This document shows positions 585 to 58,166 of a DNA stretch of 64,000 bases, in pieces. Below the pieces are notes generated by a model. It was not told the origin of the DNA and searched no databases. It saw only the letters and a list, made by a program, of their open reading frames with translations. This stretch comes from an uncultured Eubacteriales bacterium. GTDB lineage: Bacteria > Bacillota > Clostridia > Christensenellales > DTU072. How positions within the stretch are numbered: position 1 is the first letter of the stretch; the number at the start of each line of letters is the position of its first letter. The stretch covers positions 3,165 through 67,164 of the forward strand of contig CACXFJ010000047.1 of assembly GCA_902766965.1 (NCBI GenBank), in the 5' to 3' direction. A program made the translations under genes and the position numbers.

Positions 585-698
585 ATGAAACCGAAAAATC
601 AAGAATCCATATCGCGAAACGGAAGAAAGAAATCTTTCTTTGCGTATGCGTTGATGTTGTTGCTGGTACTGGCGTTGGTATTCAGCATCGCGGCGTGT
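585..698 (+). other. Signal peptidase II-type signal peptide with lipobox (Cys38) of the giant protein
   Basis: The n-region RNGRKK, the h-region FFAYALMLLLVLALVF and the lipobox SIAAC are followed by a Gly/Ser-rich tether (SQRPDDSGSGGGG). This is typical of Gram-positive lipoproteins. Confidence 0.8.
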
Positions 699-9600: not shown

Positions 9601-12600
9601 CGGAAGCCGTAGATAAGATGTCGGGCATATCCGAATCGGCAAAACAGGCTAATATCGAACGTTTTGCGTACGAATACTTCGTCGGAAGATTCAATTGGAG
9701 TACCGCCGAACGCGAAGCGTATATAGGTGTTTACAACGCGAAATTTACCGAAAGCGGCGGCAGCGTCCTTACGGCAAGTTCCGAAGCGTGGAAAGCTATC
9801 CGCGGCATGATAAACAACGAGTACGAGAATTTACTTTCCGCTCTGCGTTACGTCAACTCTTACGCATATAACGAGTTCGGCTTGAAGACCACGGGCAATC
9901 AGACTCTCAACGGTTCGGAAGAGGACTTTATAAGAGAAAACAACGTATTTATAATAGCCGACGGAAGATATAGCCGTTACGCAGAAGCGGTAAGCCATAC
10001 CTATAAGGCGATGGCGTGGAAGTATCTTGTGAGCAACAAGGCGATAGACGCCGAAGCCGCCGACGGATATTACACCGCCGCGGTAAATACTTACGTAAGG
10101 AACGCCAGAAACCTTCTTACCTTCCTCGAATACAGATACGCCGCCTGGAAGTATCTTAACGCCGACGCAAAGCGTATCCTCGCCACCACCGAAGACGGGA
10201 ACAAATTCGTGGTAAGAGCGACCACGGCGGAAGACGGTACGGTGACCTGGTACAAGACCGAAATTACCGAACAGTATCTCGTCACGTTAGAAGACTACTA
10301 CGACAAGTCGTATTCCGAAATACCGCAGCTTATCGTAGACGCGGCTAATAAGGAAGGCGTGCTTACGATAGGTTTCTTGTACGACGGTTCCATCGCGAAC
10401 GTCAGCGCGGAAATAGCCAACCTGTATCTTAAAGTAAACTTCGTCAAAGCGGGTATAAAGATAGCCGACAGCGACCTTTCGAGGACGAGACTTCATTACG
10501 TCTACAACGATTACGACGAAGTAACGGGACAGGAAGAAGTCACGGAAGCAGTCAACGACGAAAATCTCCGTAAGACCAACGGAGAATTCTCTCTTCTCGA
10601 CGAAAACTTCGGTTACGTCTACGCAAAACTCGACGTCGAATTCGGTCTTAATATGGAAGACGACGTACAGTACGACTTTACCGAACTCGTAAATTCGCTC
10701 CTTGCAAAACTCGGTCTTAACCTTAATATAAAAGGACAGACCTTGCAGATAGCGCCCGTACTCAGCATACTCAGCACGGTGGGCGACTATTTCAGAATTT
10801 CTCTCGAAGCGAGAGTAAATCTTTTCCGCCTCGTCAAAAAGGATTTAAGCGACACCGACATATCCCTTACCGTATATTCGCTCGACGCGAACGGAAAGGT
10901 TAAAGAAACGGTATTGCAACTGGTATTCGGAGCGGGACGCGAAGAAGACGGCACCGAATACGATTTCGTATACGTAGACGCCCACAGATTCAATATTCAG
11001 CGTCTGTATATAAAGAACGCGCTCGAACAGATTAAGAAACTGTTAGGCAACGCCAACGCCTCTTACGCCGTGTATCACGATATTCATAATGGCGGCTCGA
11101 TAGCCAAAGTCGTTATGGCAGCTATGATAGCCGACGTGCTTGCGGTAGACGACGGCGATTATTCCGACACCATATTCGGAGCATTCCCCTCTTACGCCGA
11201 CGGCAACGGCGGTAACAACCCCGAAGTCGACATAAATCTCGCTAAGTACGGAATGAGCGTTCAGCTCGCCGCAAACGCAATCTATACCTTACTCACCTTC
11301 TTGGGTATGGGCGACGTCAAGAGTATGATAAGCAAAGTCGGCTCGCCCGAAATAGCTCTCGACATATTCAGCGTGGCGAATTACGGCAAGGACGGCACCG
11401 TATTGAAGGATTACGACGACGGCGACAGAAACTTAATAGCCGTAAGACTTAACTTCGACAGCGTCAACGAAAACGGCGTCAGCACCGGAAGAGGAATAGG
11501 TCTCGAACTCGCCATAAGGAATATGGAATTGAGTTTCGCGCAGGATAAGAGAATAGACTTTAACGAAAACGAAGTATTAAAACGCGACGAAAACGGCGAT
11601 CCCGTCGACTTTGCCGAAGTGGACGGCATGTTGCCGAAGATTGCGTTAAAGACCACTATTCTTCTCGAAATCGACGCCGGCGTAACCAACGGAACCAACC
11701 TCTATCAGGAACCCGTCAACACGATAATGAAAAATTATCTCGGCGGACTCGTGATGGATATAGCTCTGTACATAGCCAACAAACAAAAAATAACCGTAGC
11801 CGTAGACATAGAAGCAAGTCTCGATTTAGGCAACGGCGAAGACAATAACTATCTCGCTCACCTCATATTCGGTTCTTCGCTCCGCGTAGCTCTCCGTATA
11901 TTCAGAGTGGGAGACAAGGTATCCACCGACCAAAAGAAAGAATGGGCGGTAATAACCTACTTCGGCGGCAATCTTTATATCGACCTGTCGGAACTTAACA
12001 GCGACAAGTTGTATCTTGCCGACGCGGGAAAACTCATTTTCGGCAACGGAAAGGACAAACAGTCGCAGGCGATGTTCGCCGCGTTCGACGCGCTTAACGC
12101 CGCAATAGGAGCGGTTAAGTTGGGCGTGGACGCCGAAATAAACTCTTCGGGATTATACCTTATCGTAAAGAAAGCCGCCATAGCGAGCATGCTGAAAGTA
12201 TTCGGTTTCGGCGGTTTCGATATGTTCCCCGACGCGGCTATTCAGCTCTACGTCAAAGGTATGAAAGTCGAAGACGGCGTAAACACTTTCGATATGGGGG
12301 TTAATCTCGCTCTCGGCGAAAATCTCGTCACGGGAAGTACCGAACTTAATCCGATATTAGGACTCGGTATGTCGATTAAGGGACTTTACGTAGGTTTCAG
12401 CGGACTCGATATTCAGGTATCCGACAGCGCGGAATATATCCGTATCGACCGTCTCGACACCGTCTACTTCTCCACCGAAATAATAATCAACGTTACCGAC
12501 GAAAAGGGTATCTACAAGTTGGGCGGACTGTTGCAGGTTCTTAAAGAGAACGGCTACTTCGACCTGGCGGCGACTCTCGGTATAGACACCGCGATAGATC

Positions 12601-15600
12601 CTATTATAGAGTTCCTCGAATCGCTCGACTCCAAACTTTACGTCAAGATTGACCTCACCGTAAACGTTAAGAAAATTATCGACGACTTACAGGCAAAAAT
12701 AAGTATCTATACCAAAGCTCCCGAAGAAAGAGCGGAGAACGAAAGCCCCGTGCTTAGCTTCGCTTACATAAGAGGAGACGTCTACGTAGACGCCGAAGGG
12801 ATAAGCAACAGCGACAACTTCTACTTAGGCAAAGTCAAGATATCCAACCTTATGGACATAATTAAGTCGCTTACCGGTTCGGGCGCGTCCGGCGACGCGA
12901 AGAACACGTACGAGAACATCAAAGCGTACGAACAACTCTTCTCGAAAGAATCTTCTTCTTTCGCCGACGTGAGCGATAAAGTCAGCGGAACCATAAATAT
13001 TATCGGCGACGTAGTGAAAGGTCTCACCGTAGAACTCGTCAACGGCGCTATATTCGGTATCCTCAAACAGCTCGTGGGCGTGGATATGAAAGAACTTATT
13101 ACCAACGTGGAAACGATGGTGAACAGCGTCATCGACCCCTATCTCGGAATTACGATTACTCCGAGTATGACCATTCGTATCACGATAGGTCTGCCGAGCA
13201 AAGCCTATAACGTGTCGGAAAGCGTTATTGCCGTACCCAAGAGTATGGAAAACGCGATAAACAACTGGTACTCCGACAGGAAAGATTCCCTTATCTACCC
13301 CGACGACGCGTGGAACAAACTTTTCGAAGGCAGTCTTTTGTACGATTTGTACAACGTTTCCGGTTCGGTCAAAGCCGACAAGGTAAAGGAATGGATTTCT
13401 CTCGGTCTTCCCGACATAAGCGCGGTTTACGCCGAGATGCGTTTGCGTTTCTCGAAGATGAGCGACAACCAAATCTATACTCTCACCTACGACTATATGA
13501 TAGGAGAGATTTACGGCAACGATTCTCTCGCCGCCGCGTACGGATACGATTTCGCTTCCGACAAAGTAATAGACAACGTGACTAAACGCAGCGAAAAACT
13601 CTACGCTTTCTATAACGATTACTTAAAAACCGTCGCTTTCGACAGCTTCTATGCCGCTGCCGACGATACGGTAAAGAGCGTGCTTGACAGTATGCTTACC
13701 ATCTATTCGGGCAGCAAAGTAGCCGTTTACGACGCGTACGTAGTAAGTACGGAAAGCGGAGCGGACGACTTAAGAAATCTTTACGAAAAAGACGTTCATA
13801 AAGAGAAGATAGACGAAATGAAATCTTCCGTAGGTCACGAAGCGGTCGTTTATATGAACCTTATTAAAGGTATCATGAACGCGACTTTCGCTATGGAAGA
13901 CGCCTGGATATCCTACGTATCCGATCAGATTAAGTACACTTCCGGCAGCGACAAGACGAAGATTTATCTCGCTAAATACGACGAACTGTACGCTGTTCAG
14001 CGCGCGTATGCGTGGGACGCGTTCATGGCGAAAGCTATTGAGGATAAGGACTACGTCAAGGTAGCGATGATGGAAAGCGCGTTTAACTACGCCGTAGGAA
14101 AATACAAGACCGCTACCGAACAGGAACTCAAAGCCTACGCTTACGACAAGTACAGAAAAGACCTTATAGAAGACTCTACTATTTACGAAAAAGCTCTCAT
14201 AGCCGACGACGAAAGCATATTGAAGACCGTCGTTATTAACGGTATGCGTCTCTATAAGTACCGTGCGGAAAGCGAAGACATAAGTTCCGTAGGCGTGACC
14301 AAGGACGATATTACCGACATGATAGCGATAATCGAAGCGATAATCTCGGGAATTCAGTCTTACAGCGTCAAGAATACCGTTATTCTTAACGAATATCAGG
14401 AAGCGGAACTCGCGTACGATATCATATTCTCTTCTTCCGACGCTCTTAACGCAATAAGCGAACTCTTCTCCGGCAATTCCACCGAAGTGTTGAGGACGAT
14501 AAGAGGTTACGCGATAGACGCGTTGAGAAAATCCGACGTCGAAAGAATAACCAACCAGATAGTCGCCTCCCCCGACGAAACGGAATCCGACAAGACGGAA
14601 CTTCTCTCCGCCCTTATAGGTCGTTACGCCGACAGGTTTGAAAAAATACGCGGTCGGTCCGCAGAGCAACTCGCAATAGAAGACTACGCCGACGGAAAAT
14701 CTTTCCGCGCGGACGCTTGGAACAACCTAATAAGTCTCGAATATAAGAGTATCCTCCCCGAAAACGCCGTTATTCTTTCGGTGGAAAACGGAGCGAAGAA
14801 CAGCGGATACGCAATTAGCGAAGAAAACAACGGTTACGAAGTCAACCCGTCGGTTTACTTTGCGAACAATTACAACGTAAATATCGAAAACGATATGCTT
14901 AAATTAAGTCTCGTCTACGCCGAACTCAAAGCGAGAGCGAACGATAAGACTAAGTTTATCGAAGCGGAAAATTACGCCGACGACTCCGACAATATCGGCA
15001 ACGTAATCAGTATCTGCGCTAATTCGGGCTACGGCAAAGACGGATATCTCGTCGAATTTTACAGGACGGCGAGAAGACTTGCCCGTTATCTCTACCTTAC
15101 GGGAGCCACCTTATCCGCCGAAGCCGTCGAAACGGTTAAAGCGGTAGGAGCAAATAATTACGGAGTAATATCCTGCGAAGCGTATTACGACGGTTTCGCT
15201 TCCTACAAGGGAGAAAGCGCGGCTCGCTACGGCGAAATAGCCACCGCTCTCGGTATCGTGAAAGATATGTACGATACCCTTAAAGAAGAAGAAGCCAAAC
15301 TTAATAAAAGCGTAAGAAAGGATATTAACGACTCCGTTAAGTCGATAATGCCCGCTCGCGAAATCACCACCGACAATCTCGCCGAAGCAAAAACCAACGG
15401 CGAAATAGTCGACGGCAAGGGTATGCCTTTGTATCAGACTTACCTTGCGCTCGTTATGTTCAAGACTAAGTACGCGGGCGACGCGTCGATAATCGCGGCG
15501 TTCGATTACGCGGAACAATACAGTTCTCTCGGACTCAACGAGTTCGTTGCGGCCATATACGGCAGATTCGTTAAGATTTGCGTATCCGAAAATCTTAAAA

Positions 15601-18600
15601 AAGAACTCGAACAGACGATTACCGCCTTTAACGGCGGAAACTATTCCGCCCTTACCGCCGAAGCGTGGAAAGCCTTTAATTTCGACGGCGACGTCTATGA
15701 CAACGATCGCAACGTGGTCGAAATCAAGGAAAGAGTGGCGTTTATAAGTAAGTTGTTCGATAGAATAACCGACGAAGAGTACGCTAAACGTTCGGCGTGG
15801 GGAGCGTGGTACAGACTGTCGTCCACCGCCGCGAGAATAGAGGAAATGGACAATATGCTCAGAGCGAAAGTGTTCGAAGAGCTTTATCCGTCCATAAAGA
15901 ACCTGCTTACCGAAATAATCGTCGGCAACGCAAATACCGTAATCAAAGACGGTATGAGCGTAATAGGAGTAAGCGCGAAGACTTACGAAACGGTCAACAT
16001 TATCTCCTATAACGAATACTTCGAAAACCTGAAACGCGAAACCGAAGCGCTGTACGCTACCCTTAAAAACTACGACAAGGAATTGACCGCCGCGTCTGTC
16101 GCCGCCGAAAACGAACTTACGATAGAATTCGAAAGTTCCGCTACCGACGTGCAGAAAGCGTCGATTATGAAGAAAGTTTACGACGAAATCGCCGCAAACT
16201 CTTCCGCATACGCCGCAAGCGTAGCGGTAACGTGGGCGGAAAGTTACGTTGAGGCGCGCAAAGCGTTAATAAACGTTGACAGACAGCAGTACAGCAATCT
16301 TATGTACGACAGACTGCCCGACGCCGACAAGAACAAATATATATCCGATATATTCGCCGTCTTTAACGCCGCGGTAGAGTTGACGATAAACAAGTACGCC
16401 AACGTGACGGAAACCGTTCTTCTCGGCGACGCGAAGACGAACTTCAATAGTCTTATAGAAGAATACGTCAGCGCTCATGTGTCCGACGTGGAGAGCGCAA
16501 GAAGTACTTACGAGTACGAAATAAACTATATCAAAGCGTGGAACAAGTACTTCGCCATTGCGGAAAACGCGGGCAAAACGAAGGAAGACTTCGAAAACGA
16601 TATGAGCGCGTTGGACGGCGGAATAGAAGAATATCTCGGTTCCGAATACACGAACGTACCTTATACCGTGCCTACCTATCCTGCCGACGCGTCGACAGCC
16701 ACCACGATAAAAGGCTTGAAGACGTTGTGGGACAGCGCGGTAGCCGCCGACAAACAGATAAGAAAAGACGCGTTGAAATTCAAGTACGACACTTACGCTT
16801 ATAATAATGACGCAGGAATTACCCTCGCCGAATACAACGCGGGTATAAAAGCCGTCGATAACGAGAACTATTCCGAAAGGAACTACGTCATGTACGCGTA
16901 TCTTAACAGATACGGCGATCTCGTGAGAAAACCGGGAGAAACGGAATACGGTTTCTACAACAGAAAGATAGTAGGTTTGAGAGTGTTGGAAAACGACGCC
17001 AAAATTAACGAGTCGTCGAGAACCGTCATTATAGAAAACTCCGGCGAATATCGCACGGCGGCGCTCGCGTGGGAAAACCTGTTCAAGGATAACGAGACCT
17101 CTATCGACAGAAAGACGCTTCTTACGGCGGTATATAATTTCTGTCTCGACGAATGGTACTCTTCCGACGCTACTCTCGTCGGGTACAGGAACGATATTTA
17201 CTCGGTATACTACGATACCGCGATTAAGGTGTTCGACGCTCTCTTCGCGGCAGGTCATATCACTTCGCTCTTCGGCGGAACCGACGCAAAAGTCGAATAC
17301 AACGACTATATGGCGAAGTTCGACGAATTGAAGGCGGCTGTTTCGGCGCTCGGCTCCTCTGCGGAGCAGACAGACAAAGACACCGTCGGTCTGTACGAAA
17401 AGAACAGGACGGATGTCTTGCTCACGCCCACTGCCAAGAATAAGGCTATCCTTATAGAGAAGATATACGAGTCCTACGTTGCGGGCAGACTTTCCGCAGG
17501 CGTGGTATCCGATTTCGACTCCGTGCTTACCGGATACGGAGCGGCGTTTGAAAATAAGGTTTACGAAACAGCTTACGAATACTTCACCGTACATATCTAT
17601 TCGGAACGTAACGGCGTAATTTACGACGAATTCAGGACGAAGATAGCGGCGTTGTACGACGAATACGTTACCGTAGCGATAGCGTTGCTCAAACAGATTT
17701 ACTTTGAAATCACCGGTTCGGAACTGAACGTAAACACGATTACCGCCGCGGCAAGCGCTTTCAGCGGGTTCGTAATCCCCGGCGAATATTCGAGGTTCGT
17801 CGCGTTCGTTAACGTGTTCGCAGACGAAACGGCTAAATTTACCGAGGGCGGAGTTTTGAGCAAAGACGGCAAGCTGAAGACGCTCGCCACCGTCGTTAAA
17901 GAAAACGGCGCTTTGTCGGGCAACGACGCCGTCGTGAACAAGATGACGGAGATAAGAAAAGCGTTCGTCACGTTCGTAAGAGACAATTACGTAAACTTCG
18001 GCGCGACCGAAAATATGTTCGTAACGCTCTCTAAGTATTACGAAAGTTTCGCTGCTCTTTCCAAAGAATATTCCGCTCTGTTCACCACTGCGGAAACCGC
18101 CGCTAAACGCGCCGAAACGAAGAACCTTATTGCAGGTTACGGATACGACGTAAGCGGAGCAAGCGACGCTTATATAGATATGCTCAGCGTAGTGTTTATG
18201 GCGGGCAGCGGCAATATAGGCGGCATTAACAGAATTTACAGACAGAAGTTCGACAGCTACGCCAAGGACGTGAACAGCGCGGTATACCTTACCATTACCG
18301 AAGTTGCTTTCAGAAACGCGCTCGCGGCAAACTACGACGACATAGCCGCCGCGATAAAGGCTAACGACCCGCTCCTTAAACCTTTCGTGGAAGGACAGGG
18401 AATAGACTCGACTTCTACCGCGCAGGAAAAAGCTCTCGCCCTTATCGCTCTCAGCGACGAAATAGAGAGTTATCTCGCGTCGGGCAAGACGTTAAGCGAA
18501 GTAACGTCGGCTAAGTACGCGGAAACGAGAAGCGCTGTATTAAGCCTTACCGAACCCGAAAAATACCTTACTTCCGCCATTTGGAACAAGTATTATTCCT

Positions 18601-21600
18601 TTAACGCAAGCGAAAAAATAAAGAACGCGCTTGCCCTTAAAGAAACTCTCGCCGCGGGCAGCGTCGGCGACGTCACCGATTACCTTACTTTCGTCGAAAT
18701 GAGCGATATACTTAAGGAATATCTTTCCTACAAGCAGTCGCAGGCGATAGTGGATCTCGTAGCGACGCTCGAAGACAGCTTCACCATAACGAAGAGTTTC
18801 GATCAGATATACAAGAACGCGTTGAAATCCGCCGAAGCGTTGGCTGACTTTACGTTGTCCTTAGGTATCTCGGGTAAGGATACGAGCATACTCTTCGACA
18901 TAAAGAGATATCAAGAAGACGAAACGGGCACGAGCGTATCCCTTATTAAAGACGTTCTTACCGACGAAGAAAAAGCGGAATACACCGAATACTCCGAGCT
19001 TACTTTGAGAGTAAACGTCAACGCTTCTCTCGGAATAAACTTCGACGAAGGTCGTCTCGACATCAACCCGCTCCTCAACCTCATCAACCTGCCCATTAAA
19101 CTTAGCGAACTCGATATAGACTTCCTTGCGGAACATACCCTGTACGCTACGATAGTAGGACAGCTCGGTATTAACTTCGAAGCGTTGCTTTCGGGCGACA
19201 AAGACAGAATTAACAGTTCCATAGTGGGAGAACTCGCTCTTACCTATTACCTCATCGACCACGACACCAACGGCGAAAATACGAGATTCGAGCAAGTTCT
19301 TATGCATATATGGCTCTACGGTCCGAATATCTACGCGCAGGTAGAACTCTTCGACAGCCACGTCAGCGCGAAGATACCTTTCGCTCTCGGCGAAAAGATT
19401 ATGAGTAAGGTAAAGCCGTCGAGCGGAGAAGAAGGGGGCGAAAACAACGGCAACGCCTCTTCCGCCGCCGTGATAAAGGCTTTGAACACGGCTGTGATGA
19501 GCGCTTATCACGGAGTGAGCCGTGAAGAAGCGGAAAATATGCTTAACCCCTTCGAACAGCTCTATTCCGTCGTCAACAACGCCGACAGCAGCCTTACGGA
19601 CGTACTCGAAGTATTGCTGAGAATAGGCACGAAAGAGACCGCGCTTCTCCTTACCGTCGATATTTTGGCGGAACTCGTCAAAGTCATCTTCAAGGAAGAA
19701 ACGTTGAGCAGCGACCTCGAAGACCTCGTCAATCTCGCCTTTACCGAAGGAAAACTCGCCATAGAATACGGCGACGACTTCGGTTTGAGTTTCAGCATAA
19801 GAAAGAACGCCGAAGAAGGCAGCGACAAGATAGGTTACGACGCGGAGCTCGCGTTGTTAAGGAACACCGTCGTAAGTCTCGACAGAGCCAAGTACGACAG
19901 TCTCTACGGCTCGATAGACGAACTTTACAAAAACGGTTTCTTCGAAGACTTCTTTGCCCTCGGACTTAACGTAGACACTTCCGCTACCCTTAACGAAATA
20001 CTCGCTTCGATAATCGGCGCGCGTACTACGGTAAGTTTCAGCATCTACCTTGAAAGCAACGTCCTTAAATCCATATTAGACTGGAGCGACTTGTTCAGCG
20101 TTCAGGAAATAGAAACCTTCTTCCAGCTCAAAATATTGAAGAACGCAAACGGAAGAATTCGTCTCGACATAGGTCTCGACATCGACCTTGAAAAGACGGC
20201 GTTCGACTTCTACATAAGCGGTTATAACGGCGACAACACCAACATATTCAATATCTACTTCGTCGGCGGACTTCTTAACCACGACGGAGAAGGCACGGGA
20301 ACTCTCGATCCGAAGATTTACGTCGACTGCGGAGACGGTTTGCACGACAAACTGTTACTTACTCCGCAAATGGGTTACAACCTGTTTAACATTAACCTCG
20401 TCAACATATTCTTCTATCTTATGAACAGCGATTCCCGCTATGAAATAGATATGAGTAACGCCGCCGATTTACGCAACGCGCCTTCCTTCGACGCCCTTAT
20501 AGACGATATGGACTGGAGCGACGTCATAGAAGGTCTTACTTTCGGTAAAGGCACGGTAGGTATAAGACTTGCTACCACGATAGTAAACGCATTCTTGCAG
20601 GCTCTGTTCGGATTCGAATTCGCAGAACTCGGCAACATCAAGCTGAAACTCGACAACGTAAACAATACGCTGTTCCTGACGATTCCGCTCGACGCGCCCG
20701 TCTACGACGAGAACGGCAACGTGGTCAACACGTCGAAAATTGACTTCGGATTCGGCTTGTCGGATATAAACGTAAGGCTCGGGCAGAGAGAAAACTTCTT
20801 CGGCGAAAACATTTCCGATAAATTCTCGACGGGATACGAACCTTTGGATAACTACGTTTGGGTTACCGAAGTCAACAGTTCGTTCCACATAAACGACGAT
20901 TTCAACACGGCTCTCGACCTTTCGGGACTTACCGCGTCGCTTATCAACGGTCTCGGGTTTAACATTAAGAGCGGCGACGCTCTCGACGTCGAGATACTGT
21001 TCGCGTTGCGTACCTACATAGACTTCTCGGATATAAGTAAATTAAGATTCGAGCTGGAAGTGTCTCACGGCGACGGAAACGGCTCCGTAGTTCAGAGAAT
21101 ACTCTCCGTAAAATACGTAGGCACGGAAGACGGCGGCACGGTCTACCTCGACTTGTCGGGACTCGGTTTGCCGAAGATTTCGTTAAGCAACGTAAACTTA
21201 GGAAAACTCGTAAAGGATATTCTTAAAAAGATAGAAACGGGATTGAGTAACGACGAAAAGGAGATCACGCCCAAACAGGCAGACGGCACCGTCGGCAACG
21301 ATATTACCGACGCGGAAAAACGCGCGCAGAGATACCGCGATATAGCGGATATGGAATTCGGTCAGAATATGCTTATGCTTATCTACTCCGACGAGGAAGC
21401 GAGCATAGCAATAACCGGCGCGTTACTCCTTACTTTGGTAGGAAACCTTAACGACGTTCTCGGCGGAATTCTTCCCGACGTATTGCTCAATATACCTACG
21501 TTCAGCTACGTCAAGATAGGTCGCGACGACGCCGATAAGGTAAACGGTATTCAATTAGTGCTGGACGAGAACAAACAGTTCTCCATTCGTTACAACTTCG

Positions 21601-24600
21601 ATAAGAGTTACTCTCACTTGAAGCCGAGGGCGAAACTCGACGAAGTGACCGATATGACTATCGTCAGCGACGCAGACAAGGACGAATACACTTCGATAGA
21701 TAAGTTAAAGAATATGCATATAGGTCTTAATCTCGACCTCACCTTGCAGACCAAGAATCCGGGTTCGGGCGAAAAGAGCGACGTTATTTCCGGGTTCGAA
21801 GATATGCTCGAAAAGATACTCGGACTCCAAGCCGACACCATACTGTTCGACTTGCAGGATACCACGATGACGTTCAGCATAGGACTCGATTTAGGCATCG
21901 ACCTTACCGATTTCGCCAAGTCGGTATTGAAGTTGGAAATAACCTATAACGACGAAGTCATGATAGGTCTTTATTACATCGACGGAGTGGTTTACGCCGA
22001 CTTAGGCACGCTCGGACTATTCAGAGCAAGCATAAGCGGTATCGACCTTGCGGCGATGATTATGAGCATGCTTTCGGGGACCGATTTCGAAGCGATGATT
22101 ACCACCGACGGAATAGACGTCGCGGGACTCGTCGGCGGAATACTCGACGCGGAAAAACTCAACGAGGGCGTCAAGGGCAGTACCGTCAAGTCGAGCACCT
22201 TTATAAAACCCGAAACGAAAGGTTCGGCTTTGACCGATTTCGATTCCGCTATGCAGAAAGTGGCTTCCGGCACTCTTAACAGCGGATATACGACTAAACA
22301 AATAGGCGTAATAGCCGGCGCTATGACCGACAATAAGATTAAGACTTTGTCGGGGCTTACGGCGGAACAGAACAGGGCTCTGTACGATTATGTTTTGGGC
22401 GGAAAGAGCATTGCGGAATTTATAATAAGCTCCGCCGCCACCGACTATCTCTACTACGGAGAAAAGACGAGAGTAGCCAATGCGATAAGCGCGCTTATCA
22501 CCTCCGCGCAGAGTACCCTTAAGGGTATGACCTCGGCGCAGGTATCCGACGCCATAGCCGACAGCACGGCTTCGGGCAAGACCTATAAAGGTTTCGGCGT
22601 AAAACAATTGAAGTTTATTTACGACGTTCTCGAAGAAGAAAAACTTGCGAGCGTCGACAAGATGAGCGCTTCTCTCAAATCGAAGATAGCTTCCGACTAC
22701 GCAGAGAAGAAAGCCGACGTGATAAACGAAGTTCTGTTCGCCACCGAAAAAGATATGGTAAAAGCGGTGGAAGACTTTGTCGCGAACATGGTCAAGTCTT
22801 TCGAGGGAGCCACCTCCGACATACTCAAAGCCGTCGCGAGCGGAATGACGGCTTCGGGACTCGACTTCCTCGAAATGAAAGGAAGTCACTACGACGCCGA
22901 GGGCAATTCCGAATCCAACGTGACCGCAAGGAAGAGAGCTTTCGTCGAAAAGACGGTAGATTCCTACTCCGCCGACTACGTCAACGTGAAGTACGGTATC
23001 ACCGATTCCGAAAAAGAACAGTTGAAGGCAAAGACTCTCGCGCATTTCGGTATCTATAATAAGAGCGGCTCGTCCGTAAGCGGCACCACCGGCAACAACG
23101 TGGTCGGAAAACCCGTCGTGAACCTCATTCTCACCAACACCGAAATAAAGATAAATCCGAACGCGGCTACCCTCGGACTGATAGTCGGTATGCTTATGCC
23201 CGGAAAGAACCTTTCCGTACCCGACTTTAAGCGTATGGAACTCGTTCTTAACACCTACGACGGATTGAGCAATATCAACTTCAATTTAGCGTTAGACTCG
23301 TACGGTAACAAGGTAGCCTTATCCGTACCTACGGGCGGACTTACCTTTGCCTTTAACGAAGGCGTGGGAGAACTCGCCGGCGGCAAGGACAAACCCTTTA
23401 CCGAAATGTTCGACTTGCCCGACGTATCCTCTTACGGCGGATTGACGGGCGTAAGCCTTAACGGCGGCGGACTTAATCTTAATACCACCGCTCTCGTAAA
23501 CAGTCTCTTGGACGGTATATTCATAGACGACCTTACTATCTATCTCGAACACAGAACCGATTACTGGTCGAGAAAAGATTTGTTCGCGAAATACCCGAAA
23601 GTAGACGCGACCGGTCCGTTCACCTACGCCGATAACGACGACGGATATTTGGGTAACGACGCCGCCGCTTTGAGCGGAATAATGAAAGTTCTCAATGTCA
23701 TCAATAAGATTTACAATCTCATCAACGTCAAGAAGTGGTATCAGTACTTTACCGGCGGAAAAGGATTGTTCGACGCCGTCACCAACACGAAGAACAAACC
23801 CGTATTCACCCGTAACCAGTACGCGAGAGGAAAACTTTTGGCGTACAAGTCGGTCACGAACGTAATCAACGCCGATATATCCACCCCGTCTTACAAACAG
23901 GGCAACATAAGCGCGCATATCGACCATCATCAGATTTTCGTGTCGATAGGTATGTCGCTTACCATTAAGATTTATATAACCCTCGATTTGAGTTCTTTCC
24001 TTAACGGAAGTAACGAGGGCGTGGAAAGTAAGGGTCTTAACCTGTCCAACATTATGGGTATGGTACTCTTCCCCGACAGTATGTTCGCGTCGGAGAACGC
24101 CGCTAACGGCACCGGCAGATTCTACGGCAGAGTCACCGACACCGACGGCAACCCCGTAAAAGAAGCCACCGTAACGATAAGTAACGGCACCGGCGATTAC
24201 CAGACCAGAACCACCGACGCCGACGGATATTATTACTTCTTAAATCTCCCCGTCACCGAGCATATTTACGGCGAGTACAATATCTACAAACTGGAAAAAT
24301 GGCTCAAAGAAAACGGATTCTATAACGAGAGTACCAAGACGTACACGAAAGAAGAAATAAACTACGACGGCAAGGATTATCGCCTTATCGACGGCGTGTA
24401 CTATAATCTCGGCGACAGAACCGCTATAAGCGTGTCGAAAGACGGCTGTTCTGCCTTCTACGAAAGAGATATCTTCGTCCTGCCGAAAGAAACCAACACC
24501 GCGATAAAACGCGACGTGGTACTCGTAGACGCGGCAAAGACGGGCGAAGTACCCAAGGACGTGACCTTCAAAGGCAAGTCTTATTACAAAGACGGAGAAA

Positions 24601-27600
24601 ACTTAGTACCCTTCGGCGGAGCGAGCCTTGTCTATAACGGCGGCAACGGTCTTACCGTATCCAGCGTTCTTTCCGACGGCAACGGAATAGGTTCTTACGA
24701 AATGACCGTAAAGGTTTACGACTCGATAAGACAGTATTACGAAGATAATCACCTGTCCACTCTCGCGCATAACATCACCGCTAATATGTCGGGTTACAAC
24801 TTAGTCGGATACAGACTTTCGGGCGACGATACGATAATTACCGCCGACGGACTCAATTCGACCCTCAACGACGTTATAAGACGCGGCAACAGCGGTATGA
24901 ATATCGGGCTCGATATGATATTCGAACGCACCGATATCGTCACCACCACGATAGTGGGTAAGATACTCGTGCCGAAAGAAAGAGGAAGCTCCGAAATGGT
25001 AGTTCCCGAACCCGGAACCTATCAGCTCTGGGTGAGCGTGGGCGGACGCACTTCCGGCGTAATAGACTATTACGACCTTGCACCCGACGACTTCTCGGTG
25101 GCGGTAGACCGTGACGGTAACTTCTCGTTCACGGGAAAAGAACTCGCTCTCGAAAATATCGGAGCAAGCTCGTATATAATCAAATTCCGTAGCAAAATTT
25201 ATCAGAACCTCAATCTCGTAGCCGACGCTAACGGTAACGCTACCGATACCTTCGGCAATATGAAAGTTCTCGACACCTTCAACGGCAAGGTGGCAAGCTA
25301 CTACGTCACGTTAAGTCCCATATACAGAGAAAAGCACTGGTCGGAAGAAGTGACGGGCATAAGCGAAGGAGAGAACATATCGAGCATAGGACAGCTCCTC
25401 AGCCGCGTAAGAATAAGACTCGGCGCGGACAAGCTCGACGGCGAAGTGCACGGCGACGGCGACAACGGGGTTCAGGACCACGACCACAGCTATCAGGACG
25501 ACGTCAGCAACCTTATTTACGAAGGTAGCAACGCTACCGACAGATACAACACTTACACTTATATCGAAGCGTGGCTCAATTCCGGCAAGATTAACGACAT
25601 TCTCGCCGGAGTGGAAAGTATCATTCTCGGTATGATGGGCGTGACGGGCATAGCTCCCGGACAGACTCTGAGCGCGCAGGATATTTCGCGCGGCGGCACT
25701 ACTACCGACGCCGACTTCCGTCTCGATCAGTACAGCGAATTCGATATCATAAACAAGGGCGAAGCCGAGTTGAAGAAAGGGTTCGTAAAACGTTACAAAG
25801 GTCGTTATAACGAAAACGATATCCGTATCTTCGATAAGATTTACGTAGACAAGGGCGCGTACTATCAGGCAATGCACAGCGCGCTTGCCAAGATGAGCGC
25901 GGGACTCGTTCACTTCGTTCTTACTATGGTGTTCGACTCCACGGGGCTTGCGACTATGGAAGCTCTCGGAGTTCACCTTACCGACCTTATAGCCTTCGCT
26001 ATTCTCGACCCGACGGCGTTCGAAGCGCTTAACGCTATCAAGATGCTCGGCGCAATCCCCGGCGTAGGCATAGTCTTTACCATACTCGGTACGGTGGCGG
26101 GCGCGCTCGGTTCTATTCTCAGTACGATAGGCACGCAGCTCGGAGCCATTATAGGAGAACTCGCCACGATATTCTCCTGCTTACTGCCGATACAGTTAGG
26201 GTACAATATGTTCGACACGGTCGATCTTGCCGACAGCCCGCTGCAAGCGGCGGGATTCACGCCGGATTACTTCACCGACAAGACCTATTCCACGCCTGTA
26301 GACGTGGGCGGTCAGTACGTCACTATGTACAGAGACGCAAGGACGTACGACATGTCGACTTACGCGAAGATTACCTTAAACCAAGGTAACAACGGCGGCT
26401 ATCTCGACCGTATCTCCTTGTTCATAAATTCCGCAAGCTACAACGCCGCAAGCGAAATATCGGATAACGTCGACAGCGGCAACCGTATGGGCGAATACAC
26501 CGCTATGCAACAGGGCGACTGGAAATACGAATACTGGAAGAACAACGGCAGAGTCGGTAACTACTATCACGAAGTGGTAAATTACGTCAAAGAGGAAATT
26601 TATACCAAGATAGAGGACAAGAATTATAGCGGCGAATATTACTATCACGATTTGGATAACAACAAGTACGTAATAAGCTCTTCCGCCACCGAAGACGGGA
26701 ACTACGAACTCGACGGCGACACGGGCGAAAAAGTCAAGTACAGCCGCGAAGTAATAGACACTACCGAAGTGGAATCGAGAGAAGTGACTTACGCTACCGA
26801 CCCGAGCGCGAAGTACGGAATTAAGAGCGTGGACGTCAAGTCGATGCAGGTAGTGAAAAACGGCGTCACCGACGAAGCGAACGAAAGATTCATGAACGAC
26901 TGGATTAAGCGTACCAACGTGAATTCCTACGCGGTAGTGGACGACTATTATATCGACCCCGCCACCAACAAGAGAGTCGTTTACAACAGAGTCTTTATCT
27001 ACGACGACGAACAGAACGTCAAAGAAGACATGTATCAGGAAATCGAGATAAAGAACAACGGTATAGACATTCGTCAGGTAAAAGACGCATTTACGGGTAC
27101 CTTCAAGAACGTTTCTTACGATAAGGTCACCAAGTTGTGGACGGACGAAGTAGTCGCTCCGCCTACGAAGATTACTTTCTGGGATCCTTTCGATTTGACC
27201 GACTTCACTATGGAAGGCGGCACGTGGGCGAACTCCGCCGGATATCAGGGCGTGAGAAGAAACACCGACCCGTCGATAACCGTGGACAAAGTCTTGCCCA
27301 ACAGGTATATGGCTTCGTTTGCCGACGGCAACAGCTCCGGTACGAACGGTATGAATATTTACTGGGACGTAAGCGCGTTGAACCTTACCGCCGCGGGCGT
27401 TGAGAAAGATTACCTTAAAGGTTACGTCGGCAACGGCACCTACGCGAAAATAAAGGTCGAAGTCAAACCGTTCACCGTGGATATAGTCAGCGCGAAAGCA
27501 CAGATAATAAAACAGGTCTCCGACAATCTCGTCATCGACCCGTATACCTTCAACGCGGAAGAATTCGTAGCGGGACTGCCCAGTTTCTTCTACTATGATT

Positions 27601-30600
27601 ACGAAAGCGGAACGGGTACGGAGACCCGCAGAAAGACTTATCTCTTCAACGAACTGAAATGGTCGCTCGACTATACCGTAAAAGACGGAATAAAGAAGTA
27701 CGATTCTCTCGATTACGTCACCGAAGACTTCGAGTCGTACATTAACCTTACTTTCAGAGCGTACGAAGCGGTTCGCGACGCCGACAACGAGGACAAGTGG
27801 ACCGACGCCGAGGGCAACACCCCGTACACCACCGTCAAGATACCGCTTAAAGTCAAAAACAACGAAGTCAAATACGTCGAAAGCGCCGTAAATAACAGTA
27901 TCGGCGGAATAGTATCGGTAGGTATGCCGAGCGGATATAACGGTATGATTACCTTCAACCCGTTAAATAACCGCGACCCGTACTCCTCCCTCTACTACCT
28001 CGAAAGTTTCGACGCGGCGGTAAAGAAAGACGGTTCCGTAATAAAAGACTGGGCGATTATCCCCAACAGTTTCGAGTCGATTACCCAAAACGGTAAGAAC
28101 TTAGCAAACTACGACAACAGCTTCTCGAGAGAACAGTCCTACGCGGTAAGTTACAAGATTACCGACGGAACGGGTTACGTCCAGACGATGTATATCTACG
28201 TCAAGATTTTGTCCAGCAACATTCTTGCGGGACAGAGCTACTACCTTAAAGGCAGCGACAAGGTATTCATCGAAAATAATCGCAACCTCTATCCGTACGC
28301 CGCTACGGAAAGTTACGACGGCGAAATAGCGAACAGCTACGCAAGCGGAGACGTTCTCGCAAGACTGTATCTGTCCGATAACATTAACGTAGTCTACGAA
28401 AGCGGATACGAAGAAAGAGTGGCTTTGGGCGAAACCAAAGAAACGAAGAAACAAATCTACGTTGTTTACGACGAAGAAAGCGGCAAGTTCGTTGCGAAAG
28501 GCGCGACGGTAGTCTCCGGAAGAGATTTCAGCTACCGTATCCCGTACCTTAACTACGCCGACGGCGGAAAGAAGACCGTCGAAGCGGTAATAGGACAGCA
28601 CGGATACGCTCGGTGGGAACTCGACGACGTATTTACCGATATCGTCCTCGGACGTCTTGACGTAAGCTACACCCTCAATAAAGCCAAAGCGATAGCGTAC
28701 GATACGTTGTACGCCGGTCTTAACCGTTACGACAAGCTGTCCTTATCGAGAATACTCGTCGCCGAAAACAACAACAAGGCGAAAGCGTGGGACGTCTGGT
28801 ACAATAACTACGCCGACAAGACGAAAGACACTTACAGCGTAAACGACGTGCTTAAATTAGACGTTATGCTCACCGACGCGAAACTGTCGTTCGTCACAAT
28901 TAGCTACGCCACGGCGCAGAGCCTTGCATACGAAAGACTTCTCGTTGACAATACTTCCGCTTCCACAGACAGCAACAAGATAAGCGTGACGGAACTTCGT
29001 GAAATGTTCGCCGAAGTAAAAGCGAACAACATAAACAAGTCCACCGTCGAGCAACAAGCCCTTACCTTCGCCAAGTGGTATAAAGAACGCACCAGACACG
29101 AACTTTCCATTGAAAGAACGGTTATGGAAAGAAGCGCCGAAGCCACCGGCAGCGTAAACGTAAGCCCCGATAAGGAAGTCACCGAAGATAACGTGTTAGA
29201 CTTCATTCCTTCGGGCGTAAGCATAGGATACAAGGGCGTGACGAGCGACGACGGCGAATACAAGATGATCACCACCGACGTCACCTGGATAGTCGACAAA
29301 AAAGAACTTGTCGAAAAGATGAGTTATAACGGCGCTATTATAAGCGCGGAAGCCTTGCTTAAAGACGAACTGTTTGGCAATCAGGTACTCCGCAGCGTGG
29401 GTATGAGAATAAATCAGCTCAAAGTTTCGGGCATCGTGAGTATGTTCGAAGAAGGCGACTTGCCTGACGTAAGCGCGTACGACGAAAAGACCATCGACTC
29501 GTTCCTGTCTACGTATTACAGCGCGGACACCCTCGGAGTGAGAGCATACGCGTTCGCTATCTCCATAGAAGGAGCCGACAAGATAGTAAGAATAAACACC
29601 GAAAGCGGTATGGATAACGCCGTTTGGGAACTCGCTACGAGCGACTCTTACTACGAAGGCACGACCAACAGAAAGATATTGTGGCAATACGCCGAAGACA
29701 CCGACGGCGACGGCAACTACGATAACGACGGTATAAGTTACAATCCTCGTAAGGGCGCGCACAAGATAAGAGTCTGGGTACAGAGTAAGAACTACAATAG
29801 CGTCAACGTGACGGGCGGCAAGTGGCAATATGCGGTGGAAATAGACTTCACCGACATAAAACACGCTTTCCAAGGCTCGGACGACGTGGCAAGTCTCGTA
29901 TCCTTCTCGAAGCTTGTCGACGAAACCGTGACCGATATAGTTAAGGTAAGAGTAGACGGCGACGAAACGAAAGCGAGCGTCAAGTACAACGCGAATACCG
30001 GCAGATACGCTATCGCGTTCAACCCGTCGCAAGTCAAGATAGACGAAAGTTCTTTAGTGGAATTCGACGTCGACCTCGGCGGAACGAAATACGACGCAAA
30101 CGGCAAGAGAGTAAGCAACTGGATGCCCGCTACGATAGGGCTCGACGACAACGACGAGTTCTACAAACTCAAAAAGTTCGACACGACGGCTACTTTCGGA
30201 ACGAGAACGAACAACGTTCAGAACGTAAACGTAACCCTTATAAACAAAGCCGAATACGTATTCGACGAAGTGGCGGAAGTGGTTTATAAACGCGACGGCA
30301 AAGTCGTCGACTTCGATAAGCAGATAGCCACCTCTCTCGACGACCTTGCGGCGATACTCCCGAATACCGCTTCGGTATCCGGTACTATGGACGGCGTTTA
30401 CGAACAGGTTGAACTCCCCGTAAGCTGGTCTTCGATAGAAGAATACGGACTTAACGGTCGTACTTCCGACGGAAAATATCCGACGGCGAGAGCTTTGATA
30501 GGCGACAGAACCTTCGGTTATATCCCCGACAGAACGGTGCAACTTAAATTAGGAGCCGAAAGCGAAATCGTGGTAAGCGGTATTCCCGACGTCATTAACG

Positions 30601-33600
30601 TCGATCCGTACGGCAACGAGGACCTCGAATGGATGCGGAAAGAATACTCCGTAGCCACCGTCACCTCTCGCGTCCGCGACGTGGACGGCACGGAAAGGAA
30701 AGTCACCAAGACCGTTGACGTCAAGATAGCGATGGAAGACGTGGATTTGGTCGATTACAGAGAAAACAACTTCGTAAGAAGCGAGTATTCGGTTAGATTT
30801 GCGTTAGGTCACACCGTGACTTCGGCAAGAACCGACAGCGGTAAGTTCGACGTAAGATACGAAGTAAGGAAGACGGTAATCCTCCGCGACAGAAGCATCA
30901 CCGATATGTACATTGCGAAGTTCAACGGTATTGCGGACGGCAAAGCGGTTTGGTCGGAGATAGAATATATCACCGCCGACGTATTCGAAAGAGTCGGAAC
31001 CAACGATTTTGCGTACGAAATAAGAGTGAACCCCGCCGAAAGTACGATAGACGCCGTCAGAGCAAAACTCGGCGACAAGTACAACGGTCTTACCACCGTA
31101 TACGCTTACGACGAAAGCATTAAGTCGGGCGTAGAGTACGAGATTAAAGAACCTAAGTACGGTTGCTTCATAGTCTACGGCAGCGGTACCGAAGCCACCT
31201 ACGTATCCGACGTGACCTTCGAAGGCGTCGAAGATATAGTTTATACCGCGAACGGCGGTTTCTACACCGACGTAGTTAAGGCGGTAATAGGCAAAGGCGA
31301 ATTGAAACAGACCGTTCCCGTCACCGTCAACGTAAAACGCGCTCTCGTCACGGGAATAAAACTTCTTCCCTACGAATACTCCGCCGGAGAAGAATATTCG
31401 CCCGCAGGAACGAACGGCGGTACTTACGTTCCCGTTCAGACCGATTCGGACGGCAAAGTAACAAGACTTGTGATAGAGCCTTTCCTCGGGTTCTCCAACC
31501 TGCCTGCGAAGGTAATCGCGGTAGTCGATATCGGCGGCGGCGAGATAGCGTACAGGACAGTATCCGCGGAATGGGACGGCAGTCTCGTCACCGCAAACAT
31601 GAGCATAAAGGGCGGCGAATTCAACGTAGGAAGCACGGCTAACGTGGCTTACGTCACCGTATACGCCGGTTCCGACGGAGAAAGAGCGGGCGAGCAGACG
31701 ATAGAACTTTCCGTCACCGTACCCGACAGAACGGTATTTTACTATGAAGTAAGCTACGACGGCGAGAACTACAAGCCCCTTAACGACTTAGTCTACGGAA
31801 AGAAAGCAAACGCAGCTAACTACACCAACGAATTGCTCCTCAATCCGTACGATATGCGTAACGCGCTTCTCGACGCGTACGCCGAAAGGAAAGGGCTTGA
31901 CAAGTCGATAAACGACGTCTACAACTCCTCTTCCAAGGTCTACGACACCGAGTTCTGCAAGACCGACGCCGCCGGCAACACGGTCGACAACGCCGACTTC
32001 ACGTTCTTCCGCTACGTCAGAATAGTATGCGAAGACGGTTACGTCAGAGAATACAAGCTCGACGCAAAGAACTATGTCGCGTTCTCGAAAGCAAACGTAA
32101 AAGACTTCTATTCGGGCGGACGTTCGGTCAAGATTGACTTACGCGTGGGCGAGAAATATTCTTCCGACAATAACGGAACTTACGCTCCCGACGCGGCGGT
32201 CCTTAACGTCGCTCCCAACAAGGAAACGGAAGGCGGCGAATTCGAAGAGTTCCTTAGCGTAAGAGTTCTCGACATGACCTACGGTTCGGGACTCGAAAAG
32301 GATATCTATTATATCGACCCGTACGGAGTCCTCGGAGCTACCGGCAAGAGCGGTATCACCTTCGAAAGCAAGGTAGTATATCCCGAAGACACCGTCCGTA
32401 ACGTGAAGATAGTCGGTAAAGACAGCGACAAATACTTCATCGACGACGGCGCGAGAACCGATATAGCGACGTACGTATTCGAAGAAGTCAACTACGACGG
32501 AAGCGCGATAAACTACAAGTGGTTCGATATAGTAAGCATAGACCCCGCGACCGGCAAGTTCACGCTGAAAGAACGTAAGCGTAACGACGGCAGAATCAAG
32601 TACGGCAGCGGCGTAGGAAAACTCGCCGTGACCTTCGGAAGCGACCGCGATAATTCGTTTGCGGGTACGCAGGTATTCAATATCCCCGTTGTCTACGTTG
32701 ACAGAACGGTAGAAAGTCTCGGATTTAACGGAGAAAACGCTCCTTACTTCAAGACTCTCACGTTAAGCAACGGCACCGTGGAGCAGGGCTTCGAGTTCGA
32801 CCCGTTCGTCACCTACAACGCAAGCGTAAACGGTTTTGGCGATAGCGAACAAGGCTTCCTTAAACACGGTCAGTACGGTACGAAACTTACCTTCAAGAAC
32901 AACGATATCGACAGGATATTCGGCGGAAGACAAGGTTCTACGTTCGAATACGACCTTACTATGGACCAAGGCAACGATATCCGTATCGGCGTTACGTTCG
33001 AAGACAAGGAATTGAAGTGGAGATACACGGGCGGCGAGTTCGATATCAAGGCGCGGTTAGGCAGCGGAGACAACTATCAGGAAATCCCCGTCACCGTAAA
33101 ACTTCTCTCCCGTAGAGTAGACGCAAAACGCGCGGGTACGATAAACGGTTTCAGCAGCGACATCTTCAAGTCCGGCGTAGACCTCACCACGAAAGTTAAA
33201 GCCTACGACTATATAGGGTACAGCAACGTGGAAGCCAAACTTATAAGCGATTACTTCGTCAACGGACACGTTACCTTCAAAGTTTACTTCGAAGACTTCG
33301 ACGAGCCTATCGAATACACTATGAACACGGTGGCGGCAAGCGACGGCAAGTACGTTCTTACCGACAGCGAACTCAACTACGTCGAAAACGAGACCGTCTA
33401 CAACAACGGCGTAAGAATGGCGTTTACGATGGATACGACCGAGACCATAAGTTACCGTGGCGGCAAACTCACGTTTGCGATGACTATTCCCGGTTACGGA
33501 ATGGGCAAGAATGGTCAGCAGCAAGCCACCGTATCCATAGAGATGGAAGAACAGTACGTGATTTACGCTAATCCCGCCGACGAAAACTCGGGAGAAGAAA

Positions 33601-37964: not shown

Positions 37965-38041
37965 CGAGGAGTAGCGCAGTTTGGTAGCGCGCTTGGTTCG
38001 GGACCAAGAGGCCGTGGGTTCGAATCCCGTCTCCTCGACCA
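37965..38041 (+). tRNA. tRNA-Pro (anticodon CGG), CCA encoded
   Basis: Manual cloverleaf: acceptor CGAGGAG/CTCCTCG, D-arm GCGC-agtttggta-GCGC, anticodon arm CTTGG-ttCGGga-CCAAG, variable loop aggcc, T-arm GTGGG-TTCGAAT-CCCGT, discriminator A, then CCA. The total is 77 nt. Confidence 0.9.
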
Positions 38042-55266: not shown

Positions 55267-55327
55267 GGTAAGGCGGCGAAGATAAAAATCTTCGAAAACA
55301 CACGAATTTAACAAAAAACACGTTGCG

Positions 55328-55352
55328 CCCTGCGGGATAATATCCCGTAGGG
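55328..55352 (+). promoter_or_regulatory. Intra-operon stem-loop between the SBP and permease genes (possible attenuator or mRNA-stability element)
   Basis: CCCTGCGGGA-taata-TCCCGTAGGG forms 10 bp with one G-U pair. A T5 run begins 9 nt later, so this is not a canonical terminator. Confidence 0.3.
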
Positions 55353-55481
55353 TTCGACGGTTTTTAAGAGAAGACCTTAAAAAATAAAGGTCGTACGAAA
55401 GAAAAAACGCACCCGTAAAGGGTATGATACACACCCGATACTTCGTCTTACGGACGGAGCCAGAGAAGGCAGGATATAATT

Positions 55482-57014: not shown

Positions 57015-57027
57015 GGAGGCGTAAACA

Positions 57028-58161: not shown

Positions 58162-58166
58162 CGGCA

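Follow-up and report, generated by a model that had tools for sequence, protein, structure and literature searches.

Glycine zippers have been described in membrane-spanning helices (Kim et al. 2005), e.g. those of VacA, TelE and CdzC/CdzD, according to the passages of PMC10434224 and PMC5380434 that cite this work. Soluble glycine zippers exist as well, such as the YG zipper of SMN (PMC8287954). Here, we describe a segment with the look of such a zipper in a 64,000-nucleotide stretch of DNA from an uncultured Eubacteriales bacterium (we call the whole stretch the window). The segment lies deep inside one giant open reading frame (ORF), whose product is a lipoprotein of 11,674 residues. The original prediction, made from the letters of the window, had placed a hydrophobic hairpin at nucleotides 25890-26210, and the peptide it quoted is the exact in-frame product of these nucleotides (residues 8436-8542 of the ORF at 585-35609). 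The segment most likely forms one long helix with an oily side and a side lined with Gly, Ser and Thr, and this helix was added to a helical module in one lineage; it is probably not membrane-spanning. In particular, we give a probability of roughly 55% to the reading that it forms the descending arm of a helix-turn-helix finger packing inside the extracellular helical module of a giant lipid-anchored protein.

The likeness to transmembrane glycine zippers is found at the level of the pattern. The segment contains the literal motif (GTVAGALGS, GTQLGAIIG, GAIIGELAT), its small residues line one face with aliphatics between them, and 29 residues pass without a charge. Unlike the transmembrane zippers, on the other hand, this helix has 38 residues and lies inside an exported protein of 11,674 residues, where a bilayer span is topologically implausible. 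Moreover, the glycine face is largely polar or charged in relatives, the motif is missing in nine of them and there is no pore or toxin context. That is, the sequence pattern is present, whereas a bilayer-spanning helix with a consistent topology and conservation of the zipper glycines are both lacking. Among the known kinds, the closest appears to be the amphipathic heptad helix found in soluble bundles whose helices pack through small residues. As in 'Alacoil'-type bundle helices, its register covers five heptads, it would run antiparallel to an Ala-rich arm across a tight Pro-Gly turn, and arm lengths shift by whole turns among relatives. It differs from 'Alacoil'-type packing in that the small residues of the window fall at positions b/c/f, which are normally exposed, and not at core positions; the contact itself is putative.

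The evidence for one continuous helix comes from the internal order of the segment. Over residues 8496-8533, the bulky-versus-small moment is 0.56 at 100 degrees and at most 0.17 at all other angles tested; the permutation control gave 0.15 +/- 0.08, and 0 of 5000 permutations reached 0.56. The helical phase is 105 degrees in the first 19 of these residues and 109 degrees in the last 19. A two-helix transmembrane hairpin would need a phase break at SILSTIGTQ (8510-8518), and none is seen, so the stretch reads as one 38-residue helix rather than as two apolar helices of about 18-25 residues joined by a short turn. On the helical wheel, the bulky face is made of the sectors L8501, L8508, L8519 and L8526; V8497, V8504, I8515, I8522 and L8533; A8505, L8512, I8523 and F8530; and I8500, I8511, Q8518 and I8529. 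The opposite face holds Gly, Ser, Thr and Ala. Read as five heptads, the helix has L/L/I/I/I at a, aliphatics at d/e and Gly/Ser/Thr(/Ala) at b/c/f. No 25-mer of the protein is more amphipathic, and among its amphipathic 25-mers only those of this helix and of H2 (a neighbouring conserved helix of the module) have at most one charge. The original prediction had been right about glycines every three to four residues and about the charge-free run, which is the longest of the whole protein (residues 8487-8524, 38 residues), but had counted two or three helices where there is one. Its first 'helix' is the C-terminal half of H2, and its last, LGAIIGELATIFSCLLPIQLGY, is conserved family-wide with an acidic residue and usually a His.

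What departs far from chance is this internal order, not the hydrophobicity of the segment. The charge-free run contains the top Kyte-Doolittle 19-mer (KD19) after the signal peptide, at 2.11, and a crude sum on the Hessa scale for residues 8494-8512 (+0.36 kcal/mol) is second only to that of the signal peptide (-3.6). When the mature sequence was shuffled, however, a KD19 of at least 2.11 was reached in 400 of 500 shuffles and a charge-free run of at least 38 residues in 30 of 500. Chain length and composition alone thus give such peaks, and the hydrophobicity of the segment is not beyond chance. Glycine-zipper patterns (GxxxGxxxG, (G/A/S)xxxGxxxG or GxxxGxxx(G/S/T)) match at residues 8502, 8516 and 8520. 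Protein-wide there are 28 matches vs 25 +/- 5 in shuffles, which makes the pattern alone weak evidence.

Comparison with relatives is possible, though the family is rare and both the module and its carrier family are undescribed in the literature, which yielded no report of a giant protein from Christensenella. When one genome per species was scanned with a pattern, L001 (91% identity) and L002 (84%) emerged as close relatives; both are in Christensenella metagenome-assembled genomes, and the flagged segment is nearly invariant in them. An exhaustive HMMER search with residues 7900-9099 as the query returned just 12 proteins among 1.84 billion representatives. They come from Clostridia or Bacillota genomes and are named only 'hypothetical protein' or 'carboxypeptidase-like regulatory domain-containing protein'. 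Three of them (6,720, 7,125 and 7,267 residues) are collinear with the window protein over most of its length; two of these three are complete at the N-terminus and both have lipoprotein signal peptides. A metagenome scan added ten more usable loci, two of which (L003, contig Ga0256404_1001117, and L004, contig Ga0256869_1000028) show no difference from the window (100% identity) over the matched module region, which points to independent sampling of the window's strain or species. A word-index protein search found no match with the single sequence and one fragment only (P0013) with the family profile, although relatives exist in the same collection.

The flagged helix belongs to a conserved module (Table 1), whose motifs follow in the order RIRLGAD, YTYIEAWL, helix H1, YNE.D, helix H2 (SALAKMSAGLVHF), variable region B, LL..L..LISHLLP...Y(S/N)MFDT.DL..SPL, YAKITLN and LFIN[GS]ASY. 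The module is present in single copy (its profile, searched against the giant protein, gave no second copy), and it has no relevant match in Pfam, PHROGs or the PDB by sequence or profile. H1 is kept in all relatives as ..ND.L..V....L.M.G. H2 is amphipathic at about 95-100 degrees, with one charged residue per 25-mer. Where the descending helix ends, all relatives have the same Pro and Tyr, and SPL hardly varies among them. Two conserved polar residues also stand inside hydrophobic helices. The His of H2 (residue 8443, nucleotides 25911-25913), within G(L/I)(V/I)HF, is kept in the nearer clade, and the His of LISHLLP (residue 8532, nucleotides 26178-26180) is present in most relatives, with Cys in the window and Ser in L002. 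They could make a buried polar or metal contact.

Conservation separates the two faces of the helix. Sequences of P0002, L006, L007, P0001 and P0003 were anchored on the invariant Pro of LLP, and in all five the bulky sectors are conserved. The sectors that hold Gly, Ser and Thr in the window are occupied in these relatives mostly by N, Q, K, R, D, H or S and in part by small or hydrophobic residues. At 100 degrees, the helices of the five relatives are significantly amphipathic too. The segment thus combines a 3.6-residue periodicity, a conserved apolar face and a variable polar face, as expected of an amphipathic heptad helix. In particular, the zipper glycines are invariant within Christensenella only; in P0002, L006 and L007, most of these positions have N, Q, K, R, D, S or H. 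The original prediction had proposed conservation of the Gly spacing in homologs as a check, and here it failed, as the glycine-rich part is absent or unconserved in them.

The turn is conserved together with the bulky face. The hairpin tip reads IPGVG, IPGIG, IPYVG, IPYIG or IPIVG in all eight insert-bearing relatives, and the ascending arm that leads up to it keeps a conserved base (DLIAF) below a lineage-specific distal part. As read from the sequences, the ascending/descending arms measure 8/18 residues in the distant clade and 15/23 in P0001 and P0003; the longest, at 24-27/34-37, are those of the window and the P0002 group. The differences in length between descending arms are 3, 11 and 14 residues, i.e. 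whole helical turns. A stepwise-lengthened antiparallel helix-turn-helix finger would look like this.

The lengths of two variable regions were compared across the family: region B, between fixed anchors, and region A, from RIRLGAD to YIEAW. Region B has 94 residues (region A 42) in the window, L001 and L002, and 102, 97, 97, 88 and 74 residues in L007, P0002, L006, P0003 and P0001, respectively (region A 39-50). It has 43-44 residues in P0005, L009 and P0006 (region A 30-44) and 48-56 in L008, L010, L011, L012, P0007 and P0009, where region A reaches 94-127 residues and is glycine-rich, with charge-free runs of up to 34 residues. The insert at site B is missing in nine distant relatives and 23 residues shorter in P0001 and P0003. 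The loop at site A has 30-50 residues in the window's clade, and six distant relatives carry the glycine-rich hydrophobic insert of 94-127 residues there instead. Counted over the family, glycine-rich charge-free inserts occur at site B only in eight relatives, at site A only in six, at neither site in three and at both in none, an exclusivity that comes from only two or three independent lineages (evolutionary events). Charged residues make up 5-16% of region B in 16 of 17 relatives and 21% in L010, vs about 24% protein-wide; this low charge, seen in most of the family, suggests that region B belongs to a structural hydrophobic core.

Several side observations concern these inserts. Site A corresponds to window positions 25431-25556 and site B to 26010-26138, and the long form of site A is found in L008, L010, L011, L012, L013 (= P0007) and P0009. 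Several of the glycine-rich inserts share a similar [ILF]P[GY][VIL]G turn. In addition, the distant clade (L011, at about residues 225-290 of the ORF translation, and L012, L010, L008 and P0007) has an extra hydrophobic helix-PG-helix about 640 residues upstream of the module, as in ISGAINSILGAIINAILNAAFPGVGGIIGSAVSSIITPILSDWLAGVIGDATGYGNPL, with 41 charge-free residues; it has no counterpart in the window protein.

Selection has kept the segment much as it has kept the rest of the gene. Gene-wide omega is 0.11-0.13, and for the segment it is 0.03 vs L001 and 0.12 vs L002, values that point to purifying selection on the gene and to ordinary to good conservation of the segment. Within the helix, the only replacements are I/V/L exchanges, A8505T and C8532S, and the Gly codons change synonymously only.

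Table 1. Features of the giant gene, its conserved module and the neighbouring genes, in window coordinates
Feature	Nucleotides	Strand	Residues	Remarks
Giant ORF	585..35609	+	11,674 codons	From the ORF list; carrier of the flagged segment
Lipoprotein signal peptide	585..698	+		Read from sequence: positively charged n-region, hydrophobic core, lipobox SIAAC, Cys38
Conserved module	25392..26504	+	8270-8640	Alignments of 10 to 17 relatives, 21-92% identity
His/Asp-rich loop HGDGDNGVQDHDHSYQDD	25449..25502	+	8289-8306	Variable site A
Helix H1 KINDILAGVESIILGMMGVTGIA	25587..25655	+	8335-8357	Conserved, hydrophobic; KD19 1.83
Helix H2 AYYQAMHSALAKMSAGLVHFVLTMVFD	25857..25937	+	8425-8451	Family-wide conservation
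Ascending arm LTDLIAFAILDPTAFEALNAIKMLGA	25977..26054	+	8465-8490	D8467, D8476, E8481, K8486
Insertion vs nine distant relatives	26010..26138	+	8476-8518	Roughly 43-45 residues; MAFFT alignments
Hairpin tip IPGVG	26055..26069	+	8491-8495	Family motif IP[GY][VI]G
Descending arm IVFTILGTVAGALGSILSTIGTQLGAIIGELATIFSCL	26070..26183	+	8496-8533	Single 38-residue helix by periodicity
Conserved helix end and following motif LLPIQLGYNMFDTVDLADSPL	26181..26243	+	8533-8553	
tRNA-Pro (CGG)	37965-38041	+		ARAGORN and Rfam; gene-poor stretch between an aminotransferase and the 1,167-residue surface protein
1,167-residue surface-type protein	39776-43279	-		Divergent InlB B-repeat (Listeria-Bacteroides-type repeat)
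2,531-residue subtilase	43884-51479	+		PA, Big_2, nine BspA-type leucine-rich repeat stretches
383-residue Listeria-Bacteroides repeat protein	51495-52646	+		Surface-type protein
Opp-type ATP-binding cassette transporter operon	52678-60514			Downstream of the surface-protein cluster

The topology of the chain is constrained by its full-length relatives. The N-terminus of the window protein has RNGRKK followed by FFAYALMLLLVLALVFSIAAC, with a 20-residue hydrophobic core and then the lipobox SIAAC with Cys38, which on pattern inspection conforms to the bacterial lipoprotein (signal peptidase II substrate) lipobox [LVI][ASTVI][GAS]C and agrees with the earlier call of an exported lipoprotein. P0005 (FIIAAC) and P0006 (ALIGC) have a lipoprotein signal arranged in the same way. 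Since these two share this signal and collinear N- and C-terminal parts with the window protein, without the insert or any other transmembrane-like segment, both flanks of the segment must be extracellular. A single-pass transmembrane helix, which the original prediction had already thought implausible, is ruled out on the same grounds.

In the preferred reading, the finger would consist of an ascending arm (8465-8490), the tip IPGVG (8491-8495) and the 38-residue descending helix (8496-8533), and its stepwise growth would have taken place in the Christensenella branch of the family. With its bulky a/d/e face (L/V/I), the descending helix would pack on the other hydrophobic helices of the module, i.e. 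H1, H2 and the ascending arm. Its b/c/f face is largely polar or charged in relatives and hence presumably solvent-exposed there. In the window's lineage, the corresponding Gly/Ser/Thr/Ala face would most likely pack tightly, through its small residues, against the alanine-rich ascending arm or an adjacent chain. The segment would not span the membrane of the producer. We infer both the burial in protein rather than in lipid and the identity of the packing partners. A buried hydrophobic core had been the last of three options in the original prediction, and it fits best, given a bulky face that is conserved and a Gly/Ser/Thr face that is largely polar or charged in relatives.

An AlphaFold2 model of residues 8240-8739, made without an alignment, had a mean predicted local distance difference test (pLDDT) score of 34, which is unusable. 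A model made with an alignment of eight sequences had a mean of 46.7 overall, with 29-43 over residues 8435-8534, and was of no use over the helix region. Both of these low-confidence runs (pLDDT below 50) place one helix from residue 8494 onwards, and the ascending arm comes out, also at low confidence, as helix-kink-helix. A Foldseek search of the eight-sequence model, itself unreliable, against the PDB gave nothing below E = 0.1. In a run of 646 residues, the only confidently modelled part (pLDDT 77-92) was window 26577-26756 (residues about 8665-8724), which is modelled as long beta-hairpins. This Tyr/Glu/Asp-rich insert is found in Christensenella, P0001 and P0003 and is absent from other relatives.

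Several points weigh against burial of the finger in the module. By its crude Hessa sum, 8494-8512 comes close to the threshold for insertion into a membrane. Other amphipathic helices of the protein carry 2-10 charges per 25 residues, so that a nearly charge-free descending helix is unusual, and something unusual probably covers its non-bulky face. A two-helix finger alone would be unable to bury all its bulky residues. With pLDDT at 29-43, no tertiary contacts can be read from the models and burial is not observed. Finally, the glycine-rich charge-free inserts elsewhere (at site A and about 640 residues upstream) hint at a recurring function beyond a purely structural role.

These points bear most on a possible, if clearly less probable, alternative, in which the finger protrudes from the module and either lays its bulky face in the outer leaflet of the producer's cytoplasmic membrane or joins adjacent copies of the giant protein like a zipper. 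The peripheral version would be a second, monotopic tether about 72% along the chain. The Gly/Ser/Thr face would be at the interface or in a helix-helix contact. Both flanks would stay outside, free of topological conflict, and besides the adjacent H2 the segment is the only charge-free amphipathic helix in 11,674 residues. A bulky face opposite a Ser/Thr/Gly face resembles helices of the lipid-packing-sensor type. Yet the polar face of the relatives has no consistent net positive charge (-1, +2, 0), unlike typical bacterial membrane-binding helices, and interfacial Trp or Tyr is absent. For self-association there is a precedent in the surface aggregation of CdzC/CdzD, which is driven by glycine zippers (PMC5380434). 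The occurrence of glycine-rich inserts at site B (eight relatives), at site A (six) or at neither (three) but never at both, plus one upstream in the distant clade, would suit either version. On the other hand, this pattern amounts to only two or three evolutionary events, and the function would be dispensable in the three relatives with neither insert. Moreover, a protein core explains the conserved bulky face equally well.

A broader and more doubtful idea is that the glycine-rich charge-free fingers (at site B in Christensenella and nearer relatives, at site A or upstream in the distant clade) are interchangeable and serve as functional contact elements. If so, their role would be either insertion into lipid, whether of the cell's own membrane, of a partner cell (for example a methanogen) or of vesicles derived from the host, or the linking of the giant chains into a lattice at the surface, and this would be a new way to attach or organize a cell-surface protein of more than 1 MDa.

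The first option of the original prediction, a (re-entrant) hairpin of two transmembrane helices by which the fibre would be anchored again in the producer's membrane during Sec export, is improbable. It would account for 38 + 18 uncharged residues with E8525 as the sole interruption (KD19 2.11 and 1.64) and for the Hessa sum of the best 19-mer (+0.36 kcal/mol), and it would leave the C-terminal 3,100 residues outside. At SILSTIGTQ, where the hairpin would have to turn, the phase, however, runs on without a break. Conservation places the turn at IPGVG, and the arm preceding it has four charged residues (Table 1) and cannot be the first transmembrane helix. The second arm, LGAIIGELATIFSCLLPIQ, sums to about +5 kcal/mol on the Hessa scale and is a family-wide amphipathic helix with a conserved D/E and usually a His. 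In addition, the matching segments of relatives score +3.9 kcal/mol or higher, and the insert is missing in nine relatives.

The hydrophobic helical hairpins that lie buried in soluble pore-forming domains offer a partial likeness. As in the colicin pore domain, the diphtheria toxin T domain and the Bcl-2 family, amphipathic helices flank an unusually apolar helix-turn-helix, and diphtheria toxin, like the giant lipoprotein, is exported through Sec. In contrast to these proteins, the window protein has a single apolar arm and no similarity to them in sequence or profile, and its hairpin is dispensable for the fold, because relatives lack it. Helical pore-forming toxin domains (colicin, diphtheria T, the TcdA/TcdB pore region, ClyA-like) gave no Pfam or PDB match and no Foldseek match at E <= 0.001, the latter with an unreliable model. 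In the PDB, sequence search found no pore-forming domain, and profile search found one chance-level match (E = 2.3), to a mechanosensitive channel. A lipoprotein carrier and Gly-rich hydrophobic helices also recall the outer-membrane lipoprotein families Gly-zipper_Omp, Gly-zipper_YMGG and Rick_17kDa_Anti and the class II bacteriocins (Bacteriocin_IIc), but hmmscan at E <= 10 with the 119-residue segment and the 371-residue module returned 0 families, these four (PF13488, PF13441, PF05433, PF10439) included. A sub-threshold Bacteriocin_IIc match (E = 0.1) was obtained only for the site-A insert of a distant relative.

Least probable of all is the toxin-like option of the original prediction, a pore-forming glycine zipper inserting into a target cell membrane: GxxxGxxxG and related patterns are present at 8502-8528, such motifs are needed for membrane damage by TelE and are found in VacA, Tse4 and CdzC/D (PMC10434224, PMC5380434), and a bulky face to lipid with a small face in helix-helix contact is the classical arrangement of a homo-oligomer channel, but a single internal 38-residue helix would have to carry about 3,100 or 8,400 residues across the bilayer, the Gly positions are not conserved outside the genus, there are no toxin, immunity or secretion genes nearby, and pore formers show no Pfam or PDB similarity.

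The His/Asp-rich stretch HGDGDNGVQDHDHSYQDD, which the original prediction had noted ahead of the segment, is present at nucleotides 25449-25502. It is a variable loop about 130 residues upstream of the segment, and two of its three His are lost at 53% identity (DHDH becomes EYDY in P0001). A pH-sensor role was rejected for this reason, and a DxDxDG-type calcium loop was dropped for HGDGDNG, whose spacing is off the canonical pattern.

The carrier protein has few recognizable features. Its sole Pfam match is CarboxypepD_reg (residues 7847-7891), which is unrelated to the segment and lies upstream of it, and NCBIfam and PHROGs gave no match. The C-terminal 3,100 residues had been called Ig-like; Pfam, however, finds no match in the last 3,674 residues (8001-11674). 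There are no detectable internal repeats (self-BLAST of the translation gave few weak internal matches), and a repeat-free ORF coding for 11,674 residues is unusual among bacterial giant proteins. A theme in which a hydrophobic helix with LG[IVF] at its end comes after two short strands recurs near residues 733, 941, 1632, 2034, 2415, 6351, 6941 and 8339, e.g. '...ILFNSGK VSVELSAATISAVLTMLGF' and '...RDGS LGIAVTKATLISVIRIFGI', and P0005 and P0006 have similar helices. The theme suggests that there are many structural units, so strongly diverged that BLAST misses them. Large surface-type proteins are clustered beside the giant gene, and toxin, immunity or secretion genes are absent among its neighbours (an aminotransferase, surface proteins and the Opp transporter).

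A membrane hairpin here would change the view of how an 11,674-residue surface protein is exported and tethered. More likely, the segment is an ordinary structural element, though an unusually charge-free one. Christensenella is a heritable, health-associated gut genus, and to our knowledge its cell-surface biology is almost unknown. In this context, the value of the carrier is that of a repeat-free giant lipoprotein family, found in Christensenella and other Clostridia, with almost no recognizable domains. The module holding the descending helix is a clean and well-delimited target for a first structure, and the giant lipoprotein family with its variable hydrophobic inserts is a more interesting lead than the segment itself.

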